DNA of 4,214 nt from a virus (Duplodnaviria > Heunggongvirae > Uroviricota > Caudoviricetes). The position numbers and the translations under genes were made by a program. Location: the IMG/VR virus record IMGVR_UViG_2529292835_000008; one strand, written 5' to 3'. Under the pieces are notes generated by a model. It was not told where the DNA came from and ran no database searches. It saw only the letters and a program-made list of their open reading frames with translations. Positions within the stretch are counted from its first letter, which is position 1. Each line of letters opens with the position of its first letter. Below are positions 3,027 through 4,214 of this stretch, piece after piece.

Positions 3027-3413
3027 ATGACGAAAGATGAACTGATTGCCCGTCTTCAGGAGCTGGGTGAGCAACTGAACCGTGATGTCAGCCTGACGGG
3101 GACGAAAGAAGAACTGGCGCTCCGTGTGGCAGAGCTGGAAGAGGAGCTTGATGACACTGCCGATCAGGATACCCCTCTCAGCCCGGAAAATGCGCTGACC
3201 GGACATGAAAATGAGGTGGTATCAGCGCAGCCGGATACCGTGACTGATACGGCTGCTCTGGTCACGGTTGTGGCACTGGTGACGCTGCATACCGATGCAC
3301 TTCACGCCACGCGGGATAAACCTGTGGCATTTGTGCTGCCGGGAACGGCGTTTCGTGTCTCTGCCGGTGTGGCAGCCGAAATGACAGAGCGCGGCCTGGC
3401 CAGAATGCAATAA
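3027..3413 (+). CDS. FI: DNA-packaging / head assembly protein FI
   Basis: ATG 3027 is preceded by SD GGAGGA (3017-3022). The 128-aa product MTKDELIARLQELGEQLNRDVSLTGTKEELALRVAELEEELDD...MTERGLARMQ resembles lambda gpFI, with several substitutions and a small in-frame length difference in the acidic central region. Confidence 0.85.
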   Translation: MTKDELIARLQELGEQLNRDVSLTGTKEELALRVAELEEELDDTADQDTPLSPENALTGHENEVVSAQPDTVTDTAALVTVVALVTLHTDALHATRDKPVAFVLPGTAFRVSAGVAAEMTERGLARMQ

Positions 3414-3789: not shown

Positions 3790-4035
3790 ATGGCCATAAA
3801 AGGTCTTGAGCAGGCCGTTGAAAACCTCAGCCGTATCAGCAAAACGGCGGTGCCTGGTGCCGCCGCAATGACCATTAACCGCGTTGCGTCATCCGCGATA
3901 TCGCAGTCTGCGTCACAGGTTGCCCGTGAGACAAAGGTACGCCGGAAACTGGTAAAGGAAAGGGCCAGGCTGAAAAGGGCCACGGTCAAAAATCCGCAGG
4001 CCAGAATCAGGGTTAACCGTAACCGGCTCATTTAA
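3790..4035 (+). CDS. Z: Tail completion protein Z homolog, ending prematurely at 81 codons (lambda gpZ is about 192 aa)
   Basis: ATG 3790 is preceded by an AAGGGGGA SD-like run. Residues 1-77 (MAIKGLEQAVENLSRISKTAVPGAAAMTINRVASS...KNPQARIRVNR) match lambda gpZ nearly exactly. Similarity is lost from codon 78, and an in-frame TAA follows at 4033-4035. Confidence 0.7.
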   Translation: MAIKGLEQAVENLSRISKTAVPGAAAMTINRVASSAISQSASQVARETKVRRKLVKERARLKRATVKNPQARIRVNRNRLI

Positions 4036-4072
4036 ACCGTCTGGTCTGTTTCCTCCGGCTCTACAAAAATAA

Positions 4073-4094
4073 TGTCCATCATTTTTAATGGACA
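4073..4094 (+). other. AT-rich inverted repeat (hairpin) in the post-Z segment
   Basis: TGTCCAT (4073-4079) pairs with ATGGACA (4088-4094) around an 8-nt loop CATTTTTA. It lies in a locally AT-rich stretch (4060-4100), unlike the GC-rich coding sequence upstream. Confidence 0.4.
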
Positions 4095-4101
4095 CTATCG
4101 T

Positions 4102-4214
4102 ATGAAACACCGGACCTGGATCACTGAAGCTTTACGTCTTCACTTTGAAGAACATTTACCCCGGGTTGTGGCCGGGCGTCGCCTGGGTGTACCAAAATCA
4201 ACTGTTTGTAGTAT
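4102..4214 (+). CDS. Partial ORF (5' part only) encoding a helix-turn-helix-like N-terminus; identity unknown (divergent Z continuation or a DNA-binding/transposase-like protein)
   Basis: Frame 1 is open from 4036 to the window edge, with ATGs at 4072 and 4102. Translation from 4102 is MKHRTWITEALRLHFEEHLPRVVAGRRLGVPKSTVCS; the motif RRLGVPKSTV resembles HTH segments of transposase or regulator N-termini. No obvious SD precedes either ATG. Confidence 0.3.
   Translation, partial: MKHRTWITEALRLHFEEHLPRVVAGRRLGVPKSTVCS

Follow-up and report, generated by a model that had tools for sequence, protein, structure and literature searches.

A partial reading frame at the edge of a prophage sequence read as the 5' end of tnpA from an ISCro1-group IS66 element inserted in gene Z

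The partial open reading frame that closes the window (the whole stretch of DNA analysed, 4,214 nucleotides) is almost certainly the opening part of tnpA, which comes first among the genes of an ISCro1-group IS66 element that has inserted into gene Z of a prophage, with duplication of the octamer GGTTAACC and truncation of Z. Translation of positions 4102 to 4214 (plus strand, frame 1) yields the 37 residues MKHRTWITEALRLHFEEHLPRVVAGRRLGVPKSTVCS and is free of stop codons up to the window end; these 113 nt cover codons 1 to 37 of tnpA plus 2 nt. By our own estimate about 17% of random frames would contain 37 open codons by chance, so that length alone is not significant and the significance of this frame comes from homology. 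The 37-residue fragment matches the NCBIfam model NF038385 (IS66_access_TnpA) at profile positions 1 to 35 (E value of 3.3e-11). Its score of 43 bits falls below the cut-off of 150 because the fragment is only 37 aa long, while full-length TnpA scores 294.2 bits with the same curated equivalog model. A megablast search of complete Escherichia coli genomes with positions 3950 to 4214 gave 100% matches over the whole query in six ETEC-type chromosomes, and the annotation at all six loci shows 'tnpA: IS66-like element accessory protein TnpA' next after a truncated 'phage tail protein'. One of these six records, NZ_CP025916 (L001), is used as the reference throughout (window position = L001 position − 2051), and window 4011 to 4214 is identical to L001 6062 to 6265. 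Over its whole length the window reaches no more than 98.4% identity with any complete E. coli genome. One IMG/VR contig has the identical junction; it differs from the window and breaks 54 nt beyond the window end. From the identical copies elsewhere we infer that a complete tnpA-tnpB-tnpC would also lie beyond 4214 in the window's own source.

The gene that has been interrupted encodes the tail-completion protein of a lambda-like prophage. Codons 1 to 76 of Z occupy 3790 to 4018 (plus strand) and match positions 1 to 78 of the 190 in Pfam Minor_tail_Z (E value of 3.4e-27); the insertion point is between codons 76 and 77, and the truncated frame continues into the insertion sequence as far as a TAA at 4033 to 4035. 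When the insert and one octamer were removed in silico from L001, an uninterrupted Z of 192 aa was restored, matching Minor_tail_Z over positions 1 to 190 of 190. Homology to Z ends with the left target-site duplication, GGTTAACC, at 4011 to 4018, and the same octamer is present at the other end of the element (L001 6062 to 6069 and 8769 to 8776). The element starts at 4019 with GTAACCGG (a longer read of this left end is GTAACCGGCTCATTTAAACCGT), and the ATG at 4102 follows after 83 nt. The left inverted repeat, IRL, GTAACCGGCTCATTTAAACCGTCTG, spans 4019 to 4043 (plus strand), and 16 of its first 22 positions match the reverse complement of the right end, GTAAGCGACTCGTCAGAACCGT; the right end, IRR, reads GTAAGCGA, or GTAAGCGACTC as a reverse complement, and the termini begin with GTAA. 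The IRL block is kept in 10 IS lineages with a mean pairwise identity of 0.86. Positions 4019 to 4214 (plus strand) hold the first 196 nt of an element of 2,699 bp, whose remainder lies beyond the window and which is found in full at L001 6070 to 8768. A separate contig of 2,699 bp (L002) is made up of exactly this element.

The genes of the complete copy identify the family. In L001 the truncated Z is followed by tnpA (6153 to 6800, 215 aa from the ATG at window 4102), tnpB (6800 to 7147, its ATG overlapping the TGA stop of tnpA by one base as TGATG) and tnpC (7167 to 8738, 523 aa, a RefSeq 'IS66-like element ISCro1 family transposase'), and then by the 3' part of Z and genes U, V, G, T and H. 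TnpB belongs to the IS66 Orf2 type (PF05717, E value of 4.7e-40; NF033819, 129 bits against a cut-off of 50). TnpC matches DDE_Tnp_IS66 (PF03050, E value of 2.5e-103; NF033517, 478 bits against a cut-off of 180) and also zf-IS66, LZ_Tnp_IS66 and DDE_Tnp_IS66_C. Termini of IS66-family elements begin 5'-GTAA. The family is further known for tnpABC and 8-bp duplications (PMC6778807), and its elements are described as 2.7 to 2.8 kb long with terminal repeats and 8-bp direct repeats (PMC3281130). The element in Z has the tnpA-tnpB-tnpC order (in L001), TnpB and TnpC of the IS66 types, a TnpA matching the family model, an 8-bp duplication, imperfect GTAA repeats of about 20 to 30 bp and a length within the range of about 2.5 to 2.8 kb. 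An earlier note on this DNA, made from the letters of the window, had taken the frame to belong to a mobile element ending at the Z breakpoint some 80 bp upstream. The 37 residues that it quoted are exactly those of the translation, and the IS boundary, the inverted repeats, the 8-bp duplication and the distance of 83 nt agree with that proposal. It had named, as outcomes that would speak against its reading, an alignment of the frame to protein Z or a stop within a few codons, and had recommended profile searches of the full-length frame; the frame does not align to Z, it extends to 215 aa in the identical copies, and the profile searches led to the IS66 accessory TnpA model.

Our reading differs from the RefSeq annotation in the start codon of tnpA. 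RefSeq/PGAP begins the gene at ATG 4072, giving a protein of 225 aa that opens with MSIIFNGHYRMKHRTW (MSIIFNGHYR-MKHRTW) and in which the ATG at 4102 is internal. In the E. coli element this upstream ATG does open an uninterrupted frame in phase with tnpA, and 'MSIIFNGHYR' recurs among the gene calls of distant lineages, but several observations make it improbable as the true start. In an alignment that brought together 10 IS lineages by their left ends (Escherichia, Citrobacter, Pantoea, Erwinia, Photorhabdus, Xenorhabdus and Scandinavium), an ATG or GTG at the 4072-equivalent position is out of frame or blocked by a stop in six, the Pantoea frame reading GTG TCC ATC ATT TTT TAA. An ATG or GTG is present at the 4102-equivalent position in all 10 lineages. 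Downstream of 4102 the pairwise identity at codon positions 1, 2 and 3 is 0.79, 0.91 and 0.55, respectively, while upstream of it conservation tracks the inverted repeat and not codons. The NF038385 model starts 2 residues past the Met of 4102, at residue 13 of the 225-aa form; residues 1 to 12 of this form are disordered in the AlphaFold2 model (pLDDT of 40), and database gene calls are mostly of 204 to 218 aa. Given the broken upstream frames, the codon-phase conservation, the start of the profile and the disorder of the extra residues, ATG 4102 is, on the alignments and the predicted structure, the best-supported start of tnpA and better supported than the RefSeq start. The latter is probably an over-extension by 10 codons into a conserved stem-loop, and the recurring 'peptide' is probably the product of translating stem-loop DNA, the 30 nt concerned being noncoding.

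This stem-loop, or palindrome, occupies 4069 to 4098 (plus strand; ATA-A-TGTCCAT, an 8-nt loop, ATGGACA-C-TAT) and ends 3 nt before the start of tnpA. Three blocks are conserved in the 83-nt leader: IRL, the motif CTCCGGYTC and the stem-loop, in the general form ATA-r-TGTCCAT/N8-9/ATGGACA-y-TAT. The stem-loop is likewise found at L001 6120 to 6149 and just 5' of tnpA in the further loci L004 to L047; the pattern occurs only once in the 12-kb locus and was matched by none of 200 shuffled sequences. Its arms are 95 to 100% identical across the 10 lineages, above the level of the coding sequence, the TnpA proteins being only 53 to 92% identical to that of the window. A second E. coli lineage (L082) carries an ATGTCC...GGACAT stem with a 15-nt loop at 1135 to 1163 despite a different N-terminal module. 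The fold energy is −8.6 kcal/mol (z score of −3.4), and homologous leaders have z scores of −2.8 to −7.0. In a check for covariation the stem was invariant, one variable flanking pair (A or G with C or T) varied as expected of independent sites, and a single compensatory pair was seen, in an outer helix; this variation is compatible with an RNA hairpin and with a DNA palindrome alike. No Rfam family matched window 3950 to 4214 at E values up to 1, and a scan of the leader found no sigma-70 consensus promoter and no intrinsic terminator. We tentatively suggest that in ISCro1-group IS66 elements the stem-loop might be a cis-regulatory feature not described before: it could be an RNA hairpin that holds down the translation of tnpA, or an operator to which the N-terminal helix-turn-helix (HTH) of TnpA binds in autoregulation. 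The leader sequence CUCCGG (4053 to 4058) can also pair with CCGGAC (4110 to 4115, tnpA codons 3 to 5, in which Arg is always CGG), which would enclose the start codon; RNAalifold predicts this long-range helix with one compensatory pair, and support for it is weak.

The window ends within a predicted DNA-binding fold. AlphaFold2, run on an alignment of 25 homologues, models TnpA as two confident three-helix bundles, disordered linkers and a C-terminal beta-hairpin plus helix. A model of the domain on its own (domain-only model), built on a 101-aa fragment from the database whose first 78 residues are 100% identical, has helices at residues 6 to 15, 21 to 28, 32 to 44 and 57 to 68, with pLDDT values of 92 to 96 for the first three. 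Helix 2 ends at R26-L28 (...PRVVAGRRL), the turn is G29-V30-P31, and the recognition helix opens with K32-S33-T34-V35 (KSTVCS...). According to these models, and in line with the NF038385 match, the stretch encoded by the tnpA 5' end at 4102 to 4214 (plus strand) runs from helix 1 through helix 2 and the turn to the sixth residue of the recognition helix; the window is thus predicted to hold most of the first of two HTH modules of TnpA. Pfam recognises the other: HTH_Tnp_1 (E value of 8.5e-15) and HTH_23 match residues 102 to 159 of the 225-aa form, equivalent to 92 to 149 of the 215 aa, beyond the window. Pfam does not pick up the HTH of the window, which explains how its HTH character could be noticed and yet no family be assigned.

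The nearest structural relatives of the N-terminal module are regulators. A search of its profile against the PDB found the HTH of SorC (residues 9 to 50, E value of 0.0044), and the Foldseek neighbours of the domain-only model were SorC, operator-bound DeoR, LsrR, Rrf2-type regulators and sigma-70 region 4, with weak E values of 0.4 to 1 for this domain of 45 residues and probabilities of up to 0.96. DeoR of Bacillus subtilis on operator DNA superposed with an rmsd of 2.3 Å over 45 columns (probability of 0.93). A three-helix HTH fold is what SorC, DeoR, LsrR and sigma-70 region 4 have in common with the TnpA module. In contrast to SorC, DeoR and LsrR, TnpA is without a sugar-binding effector domain and occurs in the context of a transposable element, and sequence identity is about 20%; the resemblance to SorC, DeoR and sigma-70 region 4 is one of fold class and not of family membership. 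Searching PDB sequences with the full TnpA gave spurious matches only (a His-tag linker and a designed protein). The motif 'AGLSWPLP' ('GLSWPLP') is reminiscent of the N termini of IS21-family IstA proteins. A relation to IstA was rejected: IstA (8q4d and 8b4h) appeared in Foldseek at a probability of only 0.11 with a two-domain model and was outside the top 50 with the domain-only model, it was not listed in the PDB profile search at E values up to 10, and no IstA-type matches arose in the profile search of the database.

The similarity to regulator HTHs, such as those of SorC, DeoR and sigma-70 region 4, would speak for a reading of the frame as a stand-alone small transcriptional regulator or a prophage moron outside any mobile element. 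We consider this extremely unlikely, as the frame lies inside an element with inverted repeats and an 8-bp duplication at its ends, has tnpB and tnpC after it in every case, and recurs at many unrelated chromosomal and plasmid sites; moreover, a database search with the profile of the N-terminal module recovered matches limited to IS66-family TnpA proteins and fragments, including the second E. coli lineage with about 30% identity. There is next to no chance that the frame is the OrfA of an IS3-family element, for although the full protein contains HTH_Tnp_1 and has weak matches to IS2 TnpA and IS3 models, the score with the IS3 model NF033516 is 31.6 bits where the cut-off is 160, the genes downstream encode TnpB_IS66 and DDE_Tnp_IS66 proteins and not an rve-type OrfB made via −1 frameshifting, a duplication of 8 bp and termini in GTAA accord with IS66, and the 37 residues in the window lie outside HTH_Tnp_1. 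The earlier note had described a DNA-binding N terminus of HTH type, which the confident three-helix model bears out, and had likened it to IS3-type OrfA proteins and small regulators. The latter comparison needs refining: HTH_Tnp_1 is common to IS3 OrfA and the second HTH of TnpA, but this domain is not the one in the window, gene organisation and transposase type differ, the family is IS66 and not IS3, and TnpA is an accessory protein and not the transposase. The frame is best read, then, as tnpA of an IS66 element.

Ahead of the element, the window carries a block of lambda-like head and tail genes, comprising the 3' end of the portal gene, an S49 protease/scaffold gene (C/Nu3), D (decoration), E (major capsid), FI, FII and the 76 codons of Z. 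The protease/scaffold gene (256 to 1562) has frameshifting deletions at 863 (−1), 911 (−1) and 1140 to 1141 (−2) relative to the intact copy in the ETEC record L001. An independent IMG/VR contig (L083) has no indels relative to the window at these three sites, and because of this agreement the frameshifts are probably real mutations. The interruption of Z and the protease/scaffold frameshifts together show that the prophage is defective. Gene FI (DNA packaging) has a 9-nt in-frame deletion at 3156 relative to both L001 and L083. The portal 3' end (1 to 261) did not align by megablast with the otherwise closest prophages, whose matches begin at 262; a mosaic junction at the portal/protease boundary is suggested.

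The element itself is already known, very common and annotated in thousands of genomes, as follows from its IS66 family hallmarks, its correspondence to the known ISCro1 and its many plasmid copies. Window 3950 to 4214 was matched by megablast in 4,094 of 5,426 complete E. coli genomes (about 75%); in those ETEC records with the identical junction, each genome had 8 to 11 places that matched. Among plasmids, 2,448 records had any match and 963 a full-length copy at ≥99% identity. The intact open reading frames, the intact duplication and the many copies that are 99.9 to 100% identical suggest that the element may have been active recently. It is like ISCro1 in having the tnpA-tnpB-tnpC order, the 8-bp duplication and the GTAA termini, and the transposase of the identical copy bears the ISCro1-family name in RefSeq. 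ISCro1 was first named as an IS66-family element in Citrobacter rodentium ICC168, where 24 copies were reported (PMC3072379), and it is known from E. coli too, with 2,824 bp given for 'ISCro1' in EC958 (PMC8764528); the element in Z, of 2,699 bp, differs from the latter in length. A Citrobacter copy of the element has the same leader and a TnpA that is 92% identical. The founding and experimentally studied members, IS679 and IS66, have the same three-gene layout, 8-bp duplication and DDE transposase TnpC (PMC6778807). The model of a shorter type of IS66 TnpA (NF047595, 113 positions) aligns with no more than the C-terminal half of the TnpA described here (residues 102 to 219 of the 225-aa form); the latter has in addition an N-terminal HTH module, some 75 aa long, to which another model, NF038385, extends.

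The second IS66 lineage in E. coli, on plasmid NZ_CP065616 (L082, 1084 to 3783), is 2,700 bp long and is flanked by the duplication GAACAGCC. Compared with L001 6070 to 8768 it keeps about 95% identity from IS position 414 as far as the right end, while its left 413 nt and the N-terminal module of its TnpA are divergent (about 29 to 30% protein identity), with IRL retained. This divergence of the left end beside a nearly identical remainder suggests that the left end and the N-terminal HTH module may be exchangeable between elements by recombination. In the plant pathogen Pantoea stewartii ATCC 8199 (L005 to L081), dozens of copies from at least three related IS66 lineages are found on the chromosome and on p1, p4 and p5, which is a massive expansion of this IS group.

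The events at this locus are most probably as follows. An ISCro1-group IS66 element transposed into Z at codon 76/77, duplicating GGTTAACC and truncating the gene. TnpA, by extrapolation from its fold and from IS679, would be a sequence-specific DNA-binding accessory protein, which may be made together with TnpB by translational coupling via the TGATG overlap and may act with the DDE transposase TnpC in transposition. All three genes of IS679 were reportedly needed for its transposition in the work of Han et al. in 2001. By analogy with that element and from the modelled fold, we infer that TnpA may bind DNA and may be required for transposition; the IS ends and the leader palindrome are candidates for the DNA that it would bind. 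Motifs for binding the beta-clamp have been reported in the TnpB and TnpC proteins of IS66 elements (PMC3971601).

In summary, the frame at the window edge marks the left end of a well-known and abundant insertion sequence that inactivated gene Z, and its importance is mainly for correct annotation. Only the probable mis-annotation of the start codon and the conserved stem-loop in the leader are mildly new. A practical point is that in this ISCro1-type IS66 subgroup TnpA carries two HTH modules, of which Pfam recognises only the one that lies beyond the window.
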